The notes under the pieces are model-generated. The model worked only from the letters and a program-made list of their open reading frames with translations. It searched no databases and was not told the DNA's origin. This document shows positions 3,366-29,913 of a stretch of DNA of 39,944 nucleotides, piece after piece. Made by a program: the position numbers and the translations under genes. The DNA is taken from UHGV virus genome UHGV-0147509. One strand, given 5' to 3'. Every line of letters starts with the position of its first letter. The first letter of the stretch is position 1. Source of the stretch: a virus.

Positions 3366-3631
3366 AGGTGTCATTGCTTGATCGTTCTTTACAATTTTTG
3401 TCTGGCGCAATCATTGTAGTTTGCTTGCTCGTGATTTTTACATCGTTAATCAATATGTATCAATCAGGGGAACGATTGACAAAGACGATAGAGGAAAAGA
3501 AATCAGTCTCAAATTACGAGGTATCACATGCACATAACGATTTAGTAGAAAGCCTTGACCGTATTAACAAGAGGCTTGACGAGACAAATATGCTACTTAA
3601 GCAAATTCAAAATGAAGTGGAAAAACGTTGA
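3362..3631 (+). CDS. hypothetical membrane/coiled-coil protein inserted between arc and ant
   Basis: 89-aa ORF; ATG overlaps the arc stop (ATGA); purine-rich SD-like run upstream; N-terminal hydrophobic helix [15 protein letters not shown] followed by a charged coiled-coil-like region; AT-rich. Confidence 0.6.
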
Positions 3632-3661
3632 AGCCCCAACTGCGGGAACAGTCAGGGCTTC
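3630..3661 (-). terminator. stem-loop with U-run on the minus strand (candidate terminator of an antisense sar-like RNA)
   Basis: GAAGCCC at 3630-3636 pairs with GGGCTTC at 3655-3661; on the minus strand the stem is followed by AACGTTTTT; lies just upstream of the ant ribosome-binding site. Confidence 0.35.
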
Positions 3662-3693
3662 GGTATCAACAAATCGGATTAGGAAATATTGAC

Positions 3694-16900: not shown

Positions 16901-17131
16901 ATGAACGAAGTTACGTTTGGAGAAGTTATCAAATCCGTTCGAGTTTCTGTTGTGGCTGATGTTTGTGGACTTACGCCAAAAGCCATCTATAAGTGGCTTG
17001 AGCGTGGTTCTCTGCCGCGTACCGAGTTCACTGGTGAAACCGAATATGCGGATAAGATCGCCAAGGCATCAGGCGGCAAGTACTCAGCAGCACAGATTCG
17101 CCGTATCGGTAAACAGCAGTTTGTTATGTAA
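16901..17131 (+). CDS. cro: Cro-like repressor
   Basis: 76-aa ORF with SD GGAGAG, divergent from cI directly downstream of OR; HTH-like segment VCGLTPKAIYKWLERGSLP. Confidence 0.75.
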   Translation: MNEVTFGEVIKSVRVSVVADVCGLTPKAIYKWLERGSLPRTEFTGETEYADKIAKASGGKYSAAQIRRIGKQQFVM

Positions 17132-23781: not shown

Positions 23782-23966
23782 ACGCCACAATTCAAACGAT
23801 ACCAGAGCTTCTTATCCAGACACGAGGCAATCAGACCGAAGTGGCGAGGATGCTTTCCTGCGCAAGAGGAACAGTGCTCAAGTACAACCGAGACAGCAAA
23901 GGCGAGCGTCATGTAATAGTTAACGGCGTCCTGATGGTCAAACAGGGCAAGAGGGGAAGACGATGA
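23778..23966 (+). CDS. ninH: NinH-like DNA-binding protein
   Basis: NQTEVARMLSCARGTVLKYNRDSKGERHVIVNGVLMV resembles recalled lambda NinH. Confidence 0.75.
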   Translation: MNATIQTIPELLIQTRGNQTEVARMLSCARGTVLKYNRDSKGERHVIVNGVLMVKQGKRGRR

Positions 23967-24586
23967 GACTCGAAAGCGTAGCTAAATTTCATTCGCCAAA
24001 AAGCCCGATGATGAGCGACTCACCACGGGCTACGGCTTCTGACTCTCTTTCCGGTACTGATGTGATGGCTGCTATGGGGATGGCGCAATCACAAGCCGGA
24101 TTCGGTATGGCTGCATTCTGCGGTAAGCACGAACTCAGCCAGAACGACAAACAAAAGGCTATCAACTATCTGATGCAATTTGCACACAAGGTATCGGGGA
24201 AATACCGTGGTGTGGCAAAGCTCGAAGGAAATACTAAGGCAAAGGTACTGCAAGTGCTCGCAACATTCGCTTATGCTGATTATTGCCGTAGTGCCGCGAC
24301 GCCGGGCGCAAGATGCAGAGATTGCCACGGTACAGGTCGGGCGGTTGATATAGCCAAAACGGAGCAGTGGGGGAGAGTTGTCGAGAAAGAGTGCGGAAGA
24401 TGCAAAGGCGTCGGTTATTCAAGAATGCCAGCAAGCGCCGCATATCGCGCTGTAACGATGCTAATCCCAAACCTTACTCAACCCACCTGGTCACGCACTG
24501 TTAAGCCGCTGTATGACGCTCTGGTGGTGCAATGCCACAAGGAAGAGTCAATTGCAGACAACATTTTGAATGCGGTCACACGTTAG
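23963..24586 (+). CDS. Q: late-gene antiterminator Q (lambda-type)
   Basis: 207-aa protein matching recalled lambda Q over its length (MRLESVAKFHSPKSPMMSDSPRATASDSLSG...); followed by a PR'-like promoter. Confidence 0.9.
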   Translation: MRLESVAKFHSPKSPMMSDSPRATASDSLSGTDVMAAMGMAQSQAGFGMAAFCGKHELSQNDKQKAINYLMQFAHKVSGKYRGVAKLEGNTKAKVLQVLATFAYADYCRSAATPGARCRDCHGTGRAVDIAKTEQWGRVVEKECGRCKGVGYSRMPASAAYRAVTMLIPNLTQPTWSRTVKPLYDALVVQCHKEESIADNILNAVTR

Positions 24587-24628
24587 CAGCATGATTGCCA
24601 CGGATGGCAACATATTAACGGCATAATA

Positions 24629-24657
24629 TTGACTTATTGAATAAAATTGGGTAAATT
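24629..24657 (+). promoter_or_regulatory. late promoter PR' (lambda-like)
   Basis: TTGACT at 24629-24634, 17-bp spacer, TAAATT at 24652-24657; sequence context recalled as lambda PR'. Confidence 0.6.
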
Positions 24658-24663
24658 TGACTC

Positions 24664-24858
24664 AACGATGGGTTAATTCGCTCGTTGTGGTAGTGAGATG
24701 AAAAGAGGCGGCGCTTACTACCGATTCCGCCTAGTTGGTCACTTCGACGTATCGTCTGGAACTCCAACCATCGCAGGCAGAGAGGTCTGCAAAATGCAAC
24801 CACGAAACAGTTCGCAGGTAATAGTTAGAGCCTGCATAACGGTTTCGGGATTTTTTAT
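24664..24858 (+). ncRNA. 6S-like short late leader transcript ending at tR'
   Basis: About 195 nt from the PR' start region to a T6 run at 24851-24856, matching the length of the recalled lambda 6S RNA; no ORF of significance; ends approximate. Confidence 0.4.
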
Positions 24859-25262
24859 ATCTGCAAAACAGGTAAGAGCATTGAGTCGATAATCGTGAAG
24901 AGTCGGCGAGCCTGGTTAGCCAGTGCTCTTTCCGTTGTGCTGAATTAAGCGAATACCGGAAGCAGAACCGGATCACCAAATGCGTACAGGCGTCATCGCC
25001 GCCCAGCAACAGCACAACCCAAACTGAGCCGTAGCCACTGGTTATCCTGAACTCATCAGTGATAGTTATGCTGCGGCCTTCTACATATGACCTTCGTGAA
25101 AGCGGGTGGCAAGAGGCTGCGCTAACAACCTCATGCCGTTTTGCCCGTGCATATCGGTCACGAACAAATCTGATTACTAAACACAGTAGCCTGGATTTGT
25201 TCTATCAGTAATCGACCTTATTCCTAATTAAATAGAGCAAATCCCCTTATTGGGGGTAAGAC

Positions 25263-25586
25263 ATGAAGATGCCAGAAAAACATGACCTGTTAGCCGCCAT
25301 TCTCGCGGCAAAGGAACAAGGCATCGGGGCAATCCTTGCGTTTGCAATGGCGTACCTTCGCGGCAGATATAATGGAGGTGCGTTTACAAAAACAGTAATC
25401 GACGCAACGATGTGCGCCATTATCGCCTGGTTCATTCGTGACCTTCTCGACTTCGCCGGACTAAGTAGCAATCTCGCTTATATAACGAGCGTGTTCATCG
25501 GCTACATCGGTACTGACTCGATTGGTTCGCTTATCAAACGCTTCGCTGCTAAAAAAGCCGGAGTAGAAGATGGTGGAAATCAATAA
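25263..25586 (+). CDS. S: holin/antiholin S (lambda S-type, class I holin)
   Basis: 107-aa protein [36 protein letters not shown] matching recalled lambda S, including the dual-start Met1/Met3 arrangement. Confidence 0.9.
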
Positions 25587-26046
25587 TCAACGTAAGGCGT
25601 TCCTCGATATGCTGGCGTGGTCAGAGGGAACTGATAATGGACGTCAGAAAACCAGGAATCATGGTTATGACGTCATTGTAGGCGGAGAGCTATTCACTGA
25701 TTACTCCGATCACCCTCGCAAACTTGTCACGCTAAACCCCAAACTCAAATCAACAGCAGCCGGACGTTACCAGCTTCTTTCCCGTTGGTGGGATGCCTAT
25801 CGTAAGCAGCTTGGCCTGAAAGACTTCTCTCCGAAAAGCCAGGACGCTGTGGCACTGCAACAGATTAAAGAGCGTGGCGCTTTACCGATGATTGATCGCG
25901 GTGATATCCGTCAGGCAATCGACCGTTGCAGCAATATCTGGGCTTCACTGCCGGGGGCTGGTTACGGTCAGTTCGAGCATAAGGTTGACAGCCTGATTGC
26001 AAAATTCAAAGAAGCTGGCGGAACGGTCAGAGAGATTGAGGTATGA
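25570..26046 (+). CDS. R: endolysin R (lambda-type lytic transglycosylase)
   Basis: 158-aa protein [24 protein letters not shown] matching recalled lambda R; overlaps the S stop. Confidence 0.9.
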
Positions 26047-26480
26047 GCAGAGTCACTGCGATTATCTCCGCTCTGGTTATCTGCATCATCGTCTGCCTGT
26101 CATGGGCTGTTAATCATTACCGTGATAACGCCATGACCTACAAAGAGCAGCGCGATAAAGCCACATCCATCATCGCTGATATGCAGAAGCGGCAACATGA
26201 TGTAGCAGAACTCGACGCCAGATACACAAAGGAGCTTGCTGATGCTAACGCGACTATCGAAAGTCTCCGTGCTGATGTTTCTGCTGGTCGTAAACGCCTG
26301 CAAGTCGCCGCCACCTGTGCAAAGTCAACGACCGGAGCCAGCAGCATGGGCGATGGAGAAAGCCCAAGACTTACAGCAGATGCTGAACTCAATTATTACC
26401 GTCTCCGAAGTGGAATCGACAGGATAACCGCGCAGGTTAACTACTTGCAGGAGTACATCAGGACGCAATGCCTTCGATGA
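26043..26480 (+). CDS. Rz: i-spanin Rz
   Basis: N-terminus [30 protein letters not shown] matches recalled lambda Rz; N-terminal TM plus coiled coil. Confidence 0.85.
26236..26427 (+). CDS. Rz1: o-spanin Rz1 embedded in the +1 frame of Rz
   Basis: 63-aa ORF wholly inside Rz; lipoprotein-like N-terminus with lipobox-type Cys (LVVNAC) and a Pro-rich segment. Confidence 0.75.
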
Positions 26481-26822
26481 TAGCGATAATTTTACTCATC
26501 ATCCTTCACATCTGGCTCTGTAGACAGGGTGATGATCACTTCTGGAGTGAATCCAGATTAAACATCTCATTGCTGATGCTTGATATTGAGCATCTGGCGC
26601 GCGGTAAGGGGCTGCGTTGAGATAAGAGCCAGTCATTACAAACACCAGGATTTAGCCTCGCATTCGCGGGGCTTTTTTATATCTGAATTTCACAGCGCAT
26701 CTCACGCGCATATTAACGAGAGCCTTTCAGTAAGCGAGCCTGAGAAATGCCGTTATAGGTGGCGACCTCTCTCGGGCGGCTTTTCTGTGAGACAGGCTCA
26801 CTTTCTAAAAGGTAAAGACGCT

Positions 26823-27341
26823 ATGAATCATCAATTGGCTAATCTCGATTTCCGGGACATGGTGGTTGTTTCTGGTGATCGCGTGATCACAACCTCCCGC
26901 AAGGTAGCAGCTTACTTCGACAAGCAGCATCACCACATCATTCAGAAAATCGAAAAGCTAGACTGTTCGGATGAATTTCTAACCAGCAACTTTTCGCGGG
27001 TTACCTATGAACACAAGGGTAATCAGTATGTTGAATATGAAATTTCCAAAGACGGTGCGATGTACATCATCATGTCGTTTACCGGCAAAAAAGCTGCCGC
27101 CATCAAAGAGGCGTTTATCAAAGCATTTAATTGGATGCGTGACAGGCTGATGGAGATGGCTCACTCATACCAAAGAGAGCACAACGAGTTAATGCTGGAG
27201 TTCATGAAGGAAAAGGATGTTGCCAGTATGTCAGGACGCTTGCTGAACCGCTGGGGCAGGATCAAAAAACCGCAACTCATAGCAAGAATCAAAAGGCTTG
27301 AGCAGCAGGCGCAAATATCGATCCCCGGACTGCCAAAGTGA
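26823..27341 (+). CDS. Rha-family phage regulatory protein
   Basis: Start at internal ATG 26823 (track ORF 26580..27341 has a non-protein-like leader); VVSGDRVITTSRKVAAYFDKQHHHIIQKIEKL is a typical Rha-domain N-terminus. Confidence 0.65.
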   Translation: MNHQLANLDFRDMVVVSGDRVITTSRKVAAYFDKQHHHIIQKIEKLDCSDEFLTSNFSRVTYEHKGNQYVEYEISKDGAMYIIMSFTGKKAAAIKEAFIKAFNWMRDRLMEMAHSYQREHNELMLEFMKEKDVASMSGRLLNRWGRIKKPQLIARIKRLEQQAQISIPGLPK

Positions 27342-27635
27342 CCATTCCAAAGCCCATCTACGGGTGGGCTTGATAATGAAACCGGAATTTATTCTAGGTA
27401 ACCAGTTACGGCAGTACAGCGAAACAACCCAAGCCAGTAAGTGGGGAAATAACACTGGCAGCCACTGAAAGATGAACCTCCTGCCTTATGGCAAAAAAGA
27501 TTCTTTGTGGTGGCGGACTGATGGAAAGACATCGGTTATTGCAGAGACCATTCAATGAGTGGTCTCGACAATGGCTTATACCCTACACGGGATAACTTAA
27601 CTGATATCCCTTTTAACGGATAAACGGAGCCAACA

Positions 27636-27878
27636 ATGGCAGAGATTATTCCCATGACTGAAGAACAGAAATTCCAGTTAGAGATTTACAAGCTGGTCAT
27701 GAACCAGAACGCAGCCGCAGAGGAAGCATTTCAGTTCATTGGTACTGACGAACTGAAGCTTGAACTGTTCAAAATTCACTTCCAGTCAGGCGGCGCTAAT
27801 TCAGATATCACGATCCGCACATTCGAAGCGGTGCGTAAATCGAAGGAAGCGTTAGACCTGTTCACTACCGGAGCATGA
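27636..27878 (+). CDS. hypothetical protein upstream of terminase
   Basis: 80-aa ORF with ATG start. Confidence 0.5.
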   Translation: MAEIIPMTEEQKFQLEIYKLVMNQNAAAEEAFQFIGTDELKLELFKIHFQSGGANSDITIRTFEAVRKSKEALDLFTTGA

Positions 27879-27879
27879 T

Positions 27880-28071
27880 GTGAGCGGCGTAATCAATTTT
27901 GGTAAGGAGAAGAAATTCCCAATTACTCAAGAGCTATACGAGAGACTCGAAAGCGTCATCCATGATTATGGTGAAATCAGTGTATGTGAGGCGATTGGCA
28001 CACTCGAATTGCTGAAGCAGTCATTGATTGAAAGCATGAAGAGCCAACGACCTGAAATAACAACTAAGTGA
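27880..28071 (+). CDS. hypothetical protein upstream of terminase
   Basis: 63-aa ORF starting 2 nt after the previous stop. Confidence 0.5.
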   Translation: MSGVINFGKEKKFPITQELYERLESVIHDYGEISVCEAIGTLELLKQSLIESMKSQRPEITTK

Positions 28072-28078
28072 GATAAAT

Positions 28079-28501
28079 ATGGCGACTGAACCAAAAGCTG
28101 GTCGCCCCTCTGATTATATGCCGGAGGTGGCTGACGATATCTGCTCGTTGCTTTCTTCTGGCGAAAGTTTGCTGAAAGTATGTAAGCGTCCTGGTATGCC
28201 GGATAAGTCCACTGTTTTCCGCTGGCTGGCAAAGCATGAGGATTTTCGCGACAAGTACGCGAAGGCAACTGAGGCACGAGCTGATTCTATTTTCGAAGAG
28301 ATATTCGAAATTGCTGACACTGCGATTCCAGATGCTGCTGAGGTGGCAAAGGCAAGACTTCGCGTTGATACCCGCAAATGGGCGCTGGCCCGAATGAATC
28401 CCCGTAAGTATGGCGACAAGGTAACTAACGAGCTTGTCGGTAAGGACGGCGGCGCAATCCAGATTGAAACATCACCGATGAGCACTCTGTTCGGAAAATG
28501 A
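28079..28501 (+). CDS. terminase small subunit (Sf6 gp1-like)
   Basis: 140-aa protein MATEPKAGRPSDYMPEVADDICSLL matches recalled Sf6 small terminase; directly upstream of and overlapping the large terminase. Confidence 0.8.
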   Translation: MATEPKAGRPSDYMPEVADDICSLLSSGESLLKVCKRPGMPDKSTVFRWLAKHEDFRDKYAKATEARADSIFEEIFEIADTAIPDAAEVAKARLRVDTRKWALARMNPRKYGDKVTNELVGKDGGAIQIETSPMSTLFGK

Positions 28502-29913
28502 CCTCGATTAATCCTATCTTTGAACCGTTCATTGAGGCGCATCGCTACAAAGTCGCCAAAGGCGGTCGAGGTAGCGGTAAGTCATGGGCAATTGCGAGGC
28601 TGCTTGTTGAAGCGGCGCGTCGGCAGCCTGTGCGTATTCTCTGCGCTCGTGAACTGCAAAACAGTATCAGCGATTCGGTAATCCGGTTGCTTGAAGACAC
28701 CATCGAGCGGGAAGGGTATTCGGCTGAGTTTGAAATTCAGCGTTCAATGATTCGTCATCTCGGAACGAACGCTGAATTCATGTTCTACGGCATCAAAAAC
28801 AACCCGACGAAGATTAAATCGCTCGAAGGCATTGATATCTGCTGGGTGGAAGAAGCGGAAGCGGTAACGAAGGAATCATGGGATATCCTGATTCCAACCA
28901 TCCGCAAGCCATTTTCCGAAATATGGGTGAGCTTCAACCCGAAAAACATCCTCGACGATACCTATCAGCGATTCGTCGTAAATCCTCCCGATGACATTTG
29001 CCTGCTGACGGTGAACTACACCGACAACCCGCACTTTCCTGAAGTCCTCCGTCTGGAGATGGAAGAGTGTAAACGCAGAAATCCGACACTGTATCGTCAT
29101 ATCTGGCTTGGTGAGCCAGTAAGCGCAAGTGATATGGCAATCATCAAACGTGAATGGCTTGAAGCTGCAACTGATGCGCACAAGAAACTCGGATGGAAAG
29201 CGAAAGGCGCTGTTGTTTCTGCGCATGACCCGTCAGATACAGGGCCAGATGCTAAAGGTTACGCATCGCGCCACGGTTCGGTAGTTAAGCGCATTGCCGA
29301 AGGTCTGCTGATGGACATCAACGATGGTGCTGACTGGGCTACTTCGCTGGCGATTGAAGACGGCGCTGACCATTACCTGTGGGATGGTGATGGTGTTGGT
29401 GCCGGGCTACGCAGACAGACAACGGAAGCGTTCTCCGGCAAGAAAATCACCGCCACGATGTTCAAGGGCAGCGAATCGCCATTCGATGAAGATGCGCCGT
29501 ATCAGGCCGGAGCATGGGCTGATGAAGTCGTACAGGGCGACAACGTTCGCACTATTGGTGATGTATTCCGCAATAAGCGAGCGCAATTCTATTACGCGCT
29601 GGCTGACAGACTGTATCTGACATATCGGGCGGTTGTTCACGGTGAGTATGCAGACCCCGACGACATGCTGAGTTTCGACAAAGAAGCGATAGGCGAGAAG
29701 ATGCTGGAGAAGCTGTTTGCAGAACTGACGCAGATTCAGCGCAAATTCAATAACAACGGGAAGCTGGAGCTTATGACTAAGGTCGAAATGAAGCAGAAGC
29801 TCGGTATTCCATCTCCTAACCTGGCTGATGCGCTGATGATGTGTATGCATTGCCCGGAGTCGGCTGCGCAACCCGACTATTCCAGTTACTCAATTCCTTG
29901 TGGTGTAGGTTGA
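28498..29913 (+). CDS. terminase large subunit
   Basis: 471-aa protein with Walker A KGGRGSGKS near the N-terminus and a C-terminal nuclease region; Sf6 gp2-like. Confidence 0.9.
   Translation: MTSINPIFEPFIEAHRYKVAKGGRGSGKSWAIARLLVEAARRQPVRILCARELQNSISDSVIRLLEDTIEREGYSAEFEIQRSMIRHLGTNAEFMFYGIKNNPTKIKSLEGIDICWVEEAEAVTKESWDILIPTIRKPFSEIWVSFNPKNILDDTYQRFVVNPPDDICLLTVNYTDNPHFPEVLRLEMEECKRRNPTLYRHIWLGEPVSASDMAIIKREWLEAATDAHKKLGWKAKGAVVSAHDPSDTGPDAKGYASRHGSVVKRIAEGLLMDINDGADWATSLAIEDGADHYLWDGDGVGAGLRRQTTEAFSGKKITATMFKGSESPFDEDAPYQAGAWADEVVQGDNVRTIGDVFRNKRAQFYYALADRLYLTYRAVVHGEYADPDDMLSFDKEAIGEKMLEKLFAELTQIQRKFNNNGKLELMTKVEMKQKLGIPSPNLADALMMCMHCPESAAQPDYSSYSIPCGVG

Follow-up and report, generated by a model that had tools for sequence, protein, structure and literature searches.

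What lies between the lysis genes and the DNA-packaging genes of the virus genome UHGV-0147509, and are the stem-loops and the non-coding gap found there incidental? The stretch analysed, hereafter the window, comprises 39,944 nucleotides, and the interval in question spans positions 26,481 to 28,078. The window is that of a Lederbergvirus (Sf6/HK620/P22-like), that is, a temperate P22-like phage, and the interval is probably the accessory segment of a P22-like (Sf6/HK620-type) late operon that extends from the lysis cassette to the packaging genes, for which we propose a mechanism below. The features are listed in Table 1.

On its + strand, the window encodes a Q antiterminator, holin, lysozyme, Rz, large terminase and portal, and a promoter-like site is located there as well. 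The late operon begins at the promoter-like site just downstream of the Q-family gene (23963-24586), and every gene of the interval is co-oriented with it. The order in the interval is gene-65-like ORF, terminator T, leader L, rha, hairpin Ha, module X, hairpin Hb, leader P, the DUF2560 gene, a 63-aa gene and the small terminase gene. With phages Gally and APC_JM3.2, the interval shares 97-99% identity, and it is syntenic with Sf6 genes 65-68, HK620 hkbK-hkbN and P22 rha-orf25-orf80-orf59c. The Sf6, HK620, P22 and Gally (GALLYPH_52-55) regions occupy the same position from Rz to the small terminase gene with the same gene order, share the pair formed by DUF2560 and the 59-63-aa gene, and show DNA identities of 93-99% block by block. 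Compared with these Lederbergvirus relatives, only the combination of cargo differs: here, an Rha of the phi80/Gally type resides in slot A and slot B is empty.

Pieces of the interval are present in 2717 of 5426 complete E. coli genomes, about half, and the finding as such is therefore ordinary and already known. A swappable accessory segment between the lysis and DNA-packaging genes of P22-like phages is well known, and the genes, in the order in which an earlier sequence-only reading had listed them, are already annotated in P22, HK620 and Sf6 and near-identical in published phages. Every feature of that reading is present in the window, with only small corrections to the coordinates, and the homology searches of Rha and the two small ORFs confirmed the Rha family and matched DUF2560 and PHROG 3546. 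That reading missed the gene-65-like ORF, leader L and hairpin Hb. The search for tRNA and tmRNA genes found none, and a PADLOC search for anti-phage defence with the four proteins gave no significant match, that of Rha being only marginal (E=0.005, 14 bits).

Table 1. Features of the interval and its two flanking genes in the window
Feature	Position	Strand	Remarks
Rz spanin gene (context)	26043..26480	+	Rz1 embedded at 26242-26427
50-aa ORF, Sf6 gene 65 equivalent	26468..26620	+	PHROG 11822, E=5.5e-38; coding status uncertain
Intrinsic terminator-like hairpin T	26654..26679	+	8-bp stem, then T6
Structured leader L	26683..26822	+	140 nt, conserved; core three-tier hairpin 26736-26799
rha	26823..27341	+	172 aa from ATG; 184 aa from in-frame GTG at 26787, as in the phi80 annotation
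Cassette-terminal hairpin Ha	27340..27382	+	CAUUCCA-stem-GAUAAUG; covariance-model score 57.4 bits; covariation
Non-coding module X	27379..27534	+	156 bp, conserved, predicted strongly structured
Hairpin Hb, Ha family	27534..27577	+	covariance-model score 66.3 bits
Proximal leader P of DUF2560	27574..27635	+	small hairpin GGGAUA/UAUCCC; GGAG 8 nt before ATG
DUF2560 gene, 80 aa	27636..27878	+	equivalent to Sf6 gp67, HK620 hkbM, P22 orf80
63-aa gene	27880..28071	+	starts with GTG, 1 nt past the DUF2560 stop; equivalent to Sf6 gp68, HK620 hkbN, P22 orf59c
Sf6-type small terminase gene (context)	28079..28501	+	PF20901, 151 bits

The gene-65-like ORF, the start of which overlaps the Rz stop by 13 nt, is annotated in Sf6, epsilon34, Gally and Kapi1. 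Its 26 alleles contain 8 synonymous and 18 non-synonymous variant codons and one stop, a near-neutral pattern indicative of weak constraint. Farther downstream lies the hairpin with a terminal T-run that had been noticed after Rz near 26655-26680. The stem of this hairpin, T, at 26654-26673 consists of 8 pairs, 6 of them G-C, with a 4-nt loop, and is directly adjoined by T6 at 26674-26679; in its G+C-rich stem and adjoining U-tract, T fits an intrinsic (Rho-independent) terminator, with the activity being predicted. A scan of 4 kb shows no excess of terminator-like sites (5 found vs 3.6 expected), but T is conserved across 20 diverse phages, and 3 of 6 pairs have changed in a compensatory manner; the records of epsilon34 and phi80 mark the corresponding hairpin as a terminator.

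Between T and rha lies the conserved leader L. In the alignment, 97% of its cells are paired (36-46% in slid controls) and compensatory changes affect 8 pairs, figures to be read with the proviso that the structure was derived from the same alignment that was later used to score it and that kinship can inflate covariation controls. The CCUUUCAG block of L (26723-26730), in which CUUUCAG is invariant in 20 aligned phages, is predicted to be able to pair with the Shine-Dalgarno region CUAAAAGG at 26805-26812, so that the fold of L appears to sequester the rha ribosome-binding site; this helix is contained in the single-sequence fold and absent from the RNAalifold consensus, the alignment being ragged near the ribosome-binding site. 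L precedes not only Rha genes but also KilA-N and GIY-YIG genes in phages of E. coli, Salmonella, Klebsiella, Hafnia and Shimwellia. Over positions 24000-29000, comparison with Rfam 15 gave no match to L, Ha, Hb or X at an E-value of 1 or below, the one hit being to a snoRNA, by chance and beyond the interval; at the gathering threshold, sar RNA at 3626-3692 was all that the entire window yielded. No published description of the structured leader or of a cassette-bounding hairpin was found.

The Rha-family gene that had been placed after the T hairpin is borne out by scores above the curated Pfam and NCBIfam cut-offs: 84.1 bits vs a cut-off of 29.9 for PF09669 (Phage_pRha) and 76 bits vs 45.95 for TIGR02681, along with 84 bits for PF10549 and a match to PHROG 518, 'Rha-like transcriptional regulator' (E=1e-79). 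No PDB relative of Rha was found by sequence. The rha module of phi80 has the same layout of terminator, leader, rha and hairpin, its T and L being 94% identical to those of the window, and a hairpin of the Ha/Hb family lies 4 nt past its rha stop (33.9 bits); the differences are that phi80 has another allele of the Rha coding sequence and that it is a siphovirus with other flanking modules. The gene owes its name to a phenotype, inhibition of phage growth in IHF-deficient hosts, for which the evidence here is the phi80 record, where Rha is labelled 'DNA synthesis inhibition in IHF- hosts'. This annotation reportedly originates from the work of Henthorn & Friedman in J Bacteriol in 1995 (177:3185). 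The IHF consensus (WATCAANNNNTTR) does not occur in the T-L segment of the window; there are only two one-mismatch matches, both inside rha. A literature search on DUF2560, the boundary sequences and rha/IHF found nothing specific besides the Gally paper (PMC9928086).

The hairpins that follow the cargo genes form a family with the consensus CAUUACA-stem-GAUAAUG. Ha is the stem-loop that the sequence-only reading had described as AAGCCCA-N7-TGGGCTT at 27350-27370, which stands except that the arms (27350-27356 and 27365-27371) are separated by 8 nt rather than 7 and the end accordingly is 27371; it folds into 9 pairs with a 4-nt loop, plus an outer helix, CAUU/AAUG, across 27343-27378. Within the family, 12 of 18 base pairs show compensatory changes vs 1-4 in slid controls, and 95% of cells are paired vs 31-51%, although such controls can be inflated by the relatedness of the sequences. 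The invariant elements are one U.G pair and a C-A/G-A internal loop, combined with a covarying stem of 10 bp. The family is confined to a particular place: 126 of the 128 covariance-model hits are independent + strand matches, all within the interval, and of the remaining two, one echoes a + hit on the reverse strand and one is clipped by a locus end. The model found no member in lambda and, elsewhere in the window, only a chance-level match at 16969-17010 (E=0.07). Ha and Hb do not qualify as intrinsic terminators because they have no U-tract. The + strand hairpins fold 3.8-12.9 kcal/mol more stably than their complements, an asymmetry that fits RNA and single-stranded DNA alike. Operators bound by a dimer in duplex DNA were considered for these hairpins and rejected: the half-site spacing varies by hairpin type (35-39 nt including the conserved flanks), and the covarying inner arms also contradict such a role.

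The ~290-bp non-coding spacer noted earlier exists as a gap of 294 bp (27342-27635) but is not a mere spacer: it is a conserved module that contains two structured hairpins and recurs in HK97, HK022 and P22. The folding stability of 27335-27640 corresponds to z = -5.15. At an indel site within X (27392-27400), Sf6, HK620 and Gally have an insert of 67-80 bp, Y, which the window lacks. P overlaps Hb because its first four bases (27574-27577) are the 3' end of the Hb covariance-model match; it is constant in all architectures and is also found upstream of HK97 gp74. That the gap instead encodes small proteins is very unlikely. The candidates are a 28-aa ORF at 27473 (MNLLPYGKK...), a 35-aa ORF at 27488-27595 (MAKKILCGGG...) and a 30-aa ORF from the ATG in GATAATG (27376), which are intact in most relatives and pieces of which are annotated in several records (P22 orf25, ST64T orf-118, Huey CDS0065 and a 24-aa CDS in Sf101), although the epsilon34 record calls the stretch only 'similar to the N-terminus of ST64T orf118'. 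Against this reading, the 28-aa and 35-aa ORFs have no convincing Shine-Dalgarno sequence upstream, the variable columns of the ORFs by codon position (2/5/5, 0/3/3 and 8/10/9) show no third-position excess, the C-termini shift with whatever sits at 27534, and the 30-aa ORF has only 3 codons in Sf6. Without codon periodicity and with unstable ends, these ORFs were rejected as genes.

The two small ORFs of 80 and 63 aa seen before the small terminase gene are a different matter. The 80-aa protein matches DUF2560 (PF10834) with 143.3 bits vs a cut-off of 25 over profile positions 1-72 of 72, and the 63-aa protein belongs to PHROG 3546; the former is ~60% identical in Serratia prophages and the latter gene ~67% in Hafnia. 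The variable sites of DUF2560 fall 5/2/34 by codon position, and in the comparison with HK620 and epsilon34, 10 differences are synonymous and 2 are non-synonymous. Given this conservation and the synonymous bias of DUF2560, it is unlikely that these ORFs are untranslated, and we infer from the sequence comparison that both are translated, conserved small helical proteins of the packaging-proximal block. The view that they are variable cargo is not supported; they are fixed, conserved genes of that block. AlphaFold yields a four-helix model of DUF2560 (pLDDT 74.5) and a two-helix model of the 63-aa protein (pLDDT 73.5). Neither protein has a PDB sequence match or an NCBIfam or PADLOC hit bearing on function, and the earlier remark that they have no recognisable function holds across the PDB, NCBIfam, PADLOC, AlphaFold and profile searches. 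The profile search of 1.84 billion cluster representatives recovered only 61 DUF2560 relatives. A few longer relatives from this search look like chimeric gene calls.

The modular nature of the interval emerges from the comparison of 53 related loci (48 distinct sequences), in which its length ranges from 144 to 1479 bp and a combinatorial arrangement of cassettes with two cargo slots is recovered. One slot, A, holds Rha, KilA-N, GIY-YIG/T5orf172 or Tad2-like genes, with three Rha types among the cargo of these loci, and the other holds Sf6 gp66, DUF551 and others. Sf6 and the 286-bp loci, which comprise seven distinct sequences of 286-287 bp, have nothing in slot A; elsewhere, it is occupied by other genes. 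Hb marks the empty second slot, and in Sf6, Huey and others it is replaced at 27534/27535 by a gene together with hairpin Hc; Ha, Hb and Hc are each able to abut P. The mosaic junctions fall at about 26642, 26680, 26827, 27342 and 27534, and two loci (L042 and L045) have hybrid hairpins, in which the 5' arm is of one type and the 3' arm or the flank of a second type. The cargo of epsilon34-type loci meets X at ~27408 without Ha, and some junctions thus lie off the hairpins.

These features suggest how the segment could work. T would stop unmodified transcription, whereas Q-modified RNA polymerase would read through it, and the genes of the interval would therefore be made late in lytic growth. 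The CUUUCAG block of L would pair with the rha ribosome-binding site, damping or gating the translation of potentially harmful cargo. The CAUUACA-stem-GAUAAUG hairpins would fold in the sense RNA and might act as 3'-end protection or processing sites, whereas at the DNA level, the hairpins and the adjoining conserved blocks could provide short homologies for the exchange of cargo among lambdoid phages. The polycistronic mRNAs of phage T7 carry intergenic RNase III hairpins, which offer a functional analogy, being likewise intergenic stem-loops on a long phage transcript with a conserved internal loop and a sense-strand fold. In contrast to the T7 hairpins, to which they have no sequence relationship, those described here have shorter stems (4-8 + 10 bp).

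Accessory genes in such positions are often discussed as morons, a concept that reportedly arose from the comparison of the HK97 and HK022 genomes by Juhala et al. in 2000, and the interval had been described as one that commonly hosts morons and regulators. It is indeed a hot spot for accessory genes and regulators, as the 53 loci attest, but Rha is not a moron in the strict sense. We consider it improbable that T-L-rha-Ha is a classical autonomous moron with its own promoter in L, expressed from the prophage and insulated by T and Ha. Like lambdoid morons, which are extra genes between conserved neighbours, hairpin-flanked and polymorphic among relatives, the unit is flanked by hairpins and is present or absent between otherwise colinear genomes, and a weak TTCACA-16-TATTAA match can be picked out by eye at ~26677-26704. 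However, Ha has no U-tract, the -10-like bases vary among 20 leaders (CATATTA, CGTAACA, CATTTCG, CAAACCA), and a consensus scan of the + strand over 25000-29000, which can miss weak or unusual promoters, found no sigma-70-like site, including upstream of rha and DUF2560. Unlike in lambdoid morons, there is thus no detectable promoter of its own, the terminator lies upstream rather than downstream, and the closest relative shows no expression in the lysogen. In RNA-seq of the Gally prophage, which is 97% identical, no gene but the repressor rose at least 5-fold above background, rha expression was unaffected in macrophages, and Gally was called 'devoid of any moron' (PMC9928086); judged solely by this proxy, the unit is not transcribed from a repressed prophage.

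Even less probable is the possibility that the hairpins are not RNA elements but single-stranded-DNA sites of dedicated cassette exchange, comparable to attC or Y1/HUH targets. Integron cassettes carry attC sites with R''/R' cores (RYYYAAC ... GTTRRRY) and depend on the IntI integrase and a Pc/attI platform. As in integrons, there is one imperfect palindrome behind each gene, the outer sequence is conserved whereas the inner stem is variable yet complementary, and one strand folds better than the other; furthermore, some hairpins are hybrids, and copies of a repeat, CATTACAAA, stand on both sides of the rha cassette. Unlike attC sites, the hairpins have no GTTRRRY core, their flanks being CAUUACA and GAUAAUG, and there is no Pc/attI platform. 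Among the genes of the window and of the loci examined, no IntI or other integrase adjoins the interval, and no recombinase of the integron or HUH type turned up in the region or in these loci. Some mosaic junctions, moreover, are not at a hairpin. Ordinary recombination, homologous or by short homology, between the 35-47-nt hairpins and their conserved flanks would suffice.

We tentatively suggest a rather speculative possibility, namely, that the hairpin and L are the specific recognition elements of an undescribed "plug-and-play" cassette system, in which the hairpin would serve as a processing or recombination signal at the 3' end of every cargo gene and L as a portable translational gate for toxic cargo. 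Such a system may be common to lambdoid phages of Escherichia, Shigella, Salmonella, Klebsiella, Serratia and Shimwellia, and the cargo marked by the hairpin may include anti-defence genes of the Tad2 and Acb2/Tad1 types.

The gap and the stem-loops are, then, not incidental but a conserved, structured, modular scaffold for accessory genes, including candidate anti-defence genes, and this scaffold is a defined place to seek new phage counter-defence genes. DUF2560 and the 63-aa protein stand out as conserved small proteins encoded immediately upstream of the terminase genes. The hairpin and the leader make up a defined pair of cis-elements that bears on the exchange and control of accessory genes in lambdoid phages and, if the cassette system is real, would be a concrete example of the "linker sequence" model of modular phage evolution.

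The DNA between the lysis and packaging modules of this P22-like phage genome is a two-slot cassette site. Upstream of it, after a putative promoter that is likely the late promoter, lie genes for a lambda-type holin, lysozyme and Rz with Rz1 embedded, and downstream those for an Sf6-type small terminase, large terminase and P22-type portal, all on the + strand. No tRNA genes were found in the ~600-bp stretch ahead of the holin gene in the window, in contrast to Sf6 and Kapi1, which have tRNA-Thr there. By megablast, 26481-28078 matches 224 phage records, with Escherichia phage Gally at the top (97.0% identity, 98% coverage) and Escherichia phage APC_JM3.2 (99.1%, 87%) alongside, followed by HK620, Sf101, Sf6, CUS-3 and epsilon34. 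Among 5426 complete E. coli genomes, 2717 have some portion of the interval, and in 63 a single place holds 80% or more of it. Counterparts annotated in relatives are Sf6 genes 65-68, HK620 hkbK-hkbN, P22 rha, orf25, orf80 and orf59c, and Gally genes 52-55. Given these annotations and its frequency in phages and E. coli, the region is long annotated and very common, and the feature as listed in the sequence-only reading is already known and ordinary.

Features of the interval and its genomic setting
Feature	Position	Strand	Evidence or remark
sar antisense RNA of the P22-type immI region	3626-3692	-	Rfam RF00262, 67.8 bits (gathering score 43)
Q-family antiterminator gene	23963-24586	+	PF03589
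Promoter-like site TTGACT-17-TAAATT	24629-24657	+	just after the antiterminator gene
50-aa ORF, Sf6 gene 65 equivalent	26468-26620	+	PHROG 11822
T, T-run hairpin	26654-26673, then T6	+	hairpin scan
rha	26823-27341	+	PF09669 84.1 bits, PF10549 84 bits, TIGR02681 76 bits
80-aa ORF (DUF2560)	27636-27878	+	
63-aa ORF	27880-28071	+	GTG start 1 base past the preceding stop

All features of that reading are present in the window, including the ~290-bp spacer (294 bp, 27342-27635). The stem-loop AAGCCCA/TGGGCTT also exists, with arms (27350-27356 and 27365-27371) spaced 8 rather than 7 nt apart, and folds with 9 pairs plus an outer helix spanning 27343-27378. Missed were the 50-aa ORF, a second palindrome (27538-27572) and a structured leader upstream of rha. 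The accompanying interpretation is partly supported: the interval does host accessory genes, as the varied cargo across 53 loci attests, but the two small ORFs are not part of that cargo.

Eighty IMG/VR loci, all encoding the same DUF2560 protein, were fetched, and the DNA from gene 65 to DUF2560 was extracted from the 53 loci with a gene 65 anchor (IMG/VR, GenBank relatives and the window). The interval ranges from 144 to 1479 bp, with 48 distinct sequences among the 53 loci, and all share the layout gene 65 - (T - (L) - cargo A) - Ha - (Y) - X - (Hb, or cargo B - Hc) - P - DUF2560, where L is the leader, Ha, Hb and Hc are hairpins, X is a module between Ha and Hb, Y an insert near its start and P the proximal leader of DUF2560. 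The window carries a single cargo gene, rha, in slot A. This slot is empty in Sf6 and in loci with 286-287-bp intervals and elsewhere is occupied by one of three Rha types or three KilA-N proteins, by a GIY-YIG/T5orf172 protein, or by a protein whose domain is Tad2-like (Thoeris anti-defence; PF11195, E=3.9e-26; among the loci listed, Kapi1 (L008) 1722-2243 and Huey (L005) 1722-2222). Slot B is empty in the window and elsewhere contains Sf6 gp66 (PF13876), DUF551, or 23-, 61- or 80-aa ORFs. In P22 (L090, BK000583), a reverse-strand ORF (2067-2381, -) between orf25 and orf80 (segment 2031-2381), 86 aa from an ATG preceded by AAGGAG, adjoins the hairpin GCCGCTTACTTAGCGGC; it has no CDS feature in the record examined and resembles a genuine moron, in reverse orientation, in slot B.

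The 80-aa product matches DUF2560 over its full length (143 bits) and the 63-aa product is PHROG 3546; on sequence grounds both ORFs are fixed genes rather than variable cargo. Their homologues reach down to ~60% identity in Serratia and ~67% in Hafnia, respectively, with many invariant columns. Variable sites of DUF2560 number 5/2/34 by codon position, and 10 synonymous and 2 non-synonymous differences separate it from HK620 and epsilon34, the GenBank comparisons being the unbiased ones, as the IMG/VR loci were chosen by protein identity. DUF2560 keeps its position ahead of 3 small-terminase types (Sf6-type, P22 gp3-type and Serratia GP3-like), unlike the one or more genes that separate it from the small terminase gene, which differ among phages. 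The gene 65-like ORF has a hydrophobic N-terminus and, across 26 alleles, a near-neutral pattern (8 synonymous and 18 non-synonymous variant codons, plus 1 stop); constraint on it may be weak, or it may go untranslated.

Ha, the stem-loop after rha, and Hb (27534-27577) form one family: CAUUACA, a 10-bp stem, a variable loop and GAUAAUG, with the CAUU/AAUG helix split from the stem by a conserved C-A/G-A internal loop. Hc, 3' of slot-B cargo, is a third type. A covariance model made from the three finds the motif 4 nt past the phi80 rha stop, 1 nt past a Klebsiella phage cargo gene and, in a Serratia prophage, 20 nt upstream of DUF2560 and 2 nt past the stop of the gene before it; in lambda there is no match. 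The 128 matches in 81 loci all fall within the interval, 126 of them independent and on the + strand, the others being a reverse-strand echo of a + match and one clipped at a locus end. A weak match in the immunity region (16969-17010, +; 18.8 bits, E=0.07) is probably due to chance.

Among nine representative variants, pairing holds in 95% of cells, against 31-51% with the partner slid, two-sided changes occur in 12 of 18 pairs (slid controls give 1-4, shuffles 4.3 +/- 1.5), and one U.G pair is invariant. The + strand folds more stably than its complement by 3.8-12.9 kcal/mol. There is thus good evidence that selection acts on the single-stranded fold of the sense strand. As the late transcript passes through the hairpins, the simplest reading is that they act as RNA; the same evidence might also reflect selection as single-stranded DNA. 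Lacking a U-tract, they are not canonical terminators.

At 90-99% identity, the Ha-X-Hb-P block recurs in 206 phage records, including the siphoviruses HK97, HK022 and the mEp series, and in P22 comes after rha. Cos-type HK97 (L089, 1799-2095) has the whole block, 93.6% identical, upstream of gp74; with HK022 and the mEp phages, this makes the module independent of packaging type. Its predicted structure is unusually strong (z = -5.15), and its 3' half is nearly invariant in 63 distinct copies. Short ORFs in the spacer lack codon periodicity, with ends that shift with neighbouring insertions, and were rejected as genes; X is regarded as non-coding. At 27392-27400, Sf6, HK620, Gally and APC_JM3.2 have 67-80 extra hairpin-rich bases (Y), absent from the window, Huey and Kapi1.

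Pairwise comparison places junctions at about 26642, 26680, 26827, 27342 and 27534. P can directly follow Ha, Hb or Hc; where slot A is empty, Ha lies directly 3' of gene 65; the rha cassette is flanked by CATTACAAA (26634-26642) and CATTCCAAA (27343-27351); and in two loci the 5' arm of a hairpin is of one type and the 3' arm or flank of another. Such a pattern fits recombination in the hairpins or next to them as the route of cargo exchange. Other junctions lie away from them, as where epsilon34-type cargo meets X near 27408.

The 190-bp stretch running from T to the rha ATG is 68-99% identical across 174 phage records, among them phi80 (where it precedes rha), Stx2a phages and phages of Klebsiella and Hafnia; a Shimwellia prophage has it as well. 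The same leader precedes Rha, KilA-N and GIY-YIG genes, with the junction lying precisely at the start codon. The structure predicted by RNAalifold comprises T, a small GCGC hairpin and a hairpin of three tiers (26736-26799), with pairing in 97% of cells (36-46% in slid controls) and 8 compensatory pairs; when a single sequence is folded, the Shine-Dalgarno region (26805-26812) is paired with CUUUCAG, an invariant block lying within 26723-26730. Since its -10-like bases are not conserved and no promoter was detected in it, L is read as a 5' leader inside the late transcript, which would limit translation of potentially harmful cargo. An in-frame GTG lying 36 nt before the rha ATG (26787-26822) would add MRQAHFLKGKDA; the phi80 record starts rha there and, because the cargo junction is the ATG, the same extension would reach the KilA-N and GIY-YIG genes.

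In a published transcriptome of the Gally prophage, a 97% identical proxy, the repressor is the only gene reported at least 5-fold over prophage background, rha expression is unaffected in macrophages, and the authors call the phage devoid of morons (PMC9928086). Together with the lack of a detected promoter, this speaks for expression of rha and the small genes within the Q-dependent late operon and not as lysogenic-conversion morons. Neither the cassette-terminal hairpin nor the leader is in Rfam, and no description was found in the literature searched. What the analysis adds is the precise anatomy and these two conserved structured cis elements, with hypothetical roles; and, as the first slot holds Tad2-like cargo in related phages and, in a Serratia prophage (L099, 3371-3652), an Acb2/Tad1-type gene (Acb2/Tad1-hairpin, PF24729), the site is worth searching for anti-defence genes.
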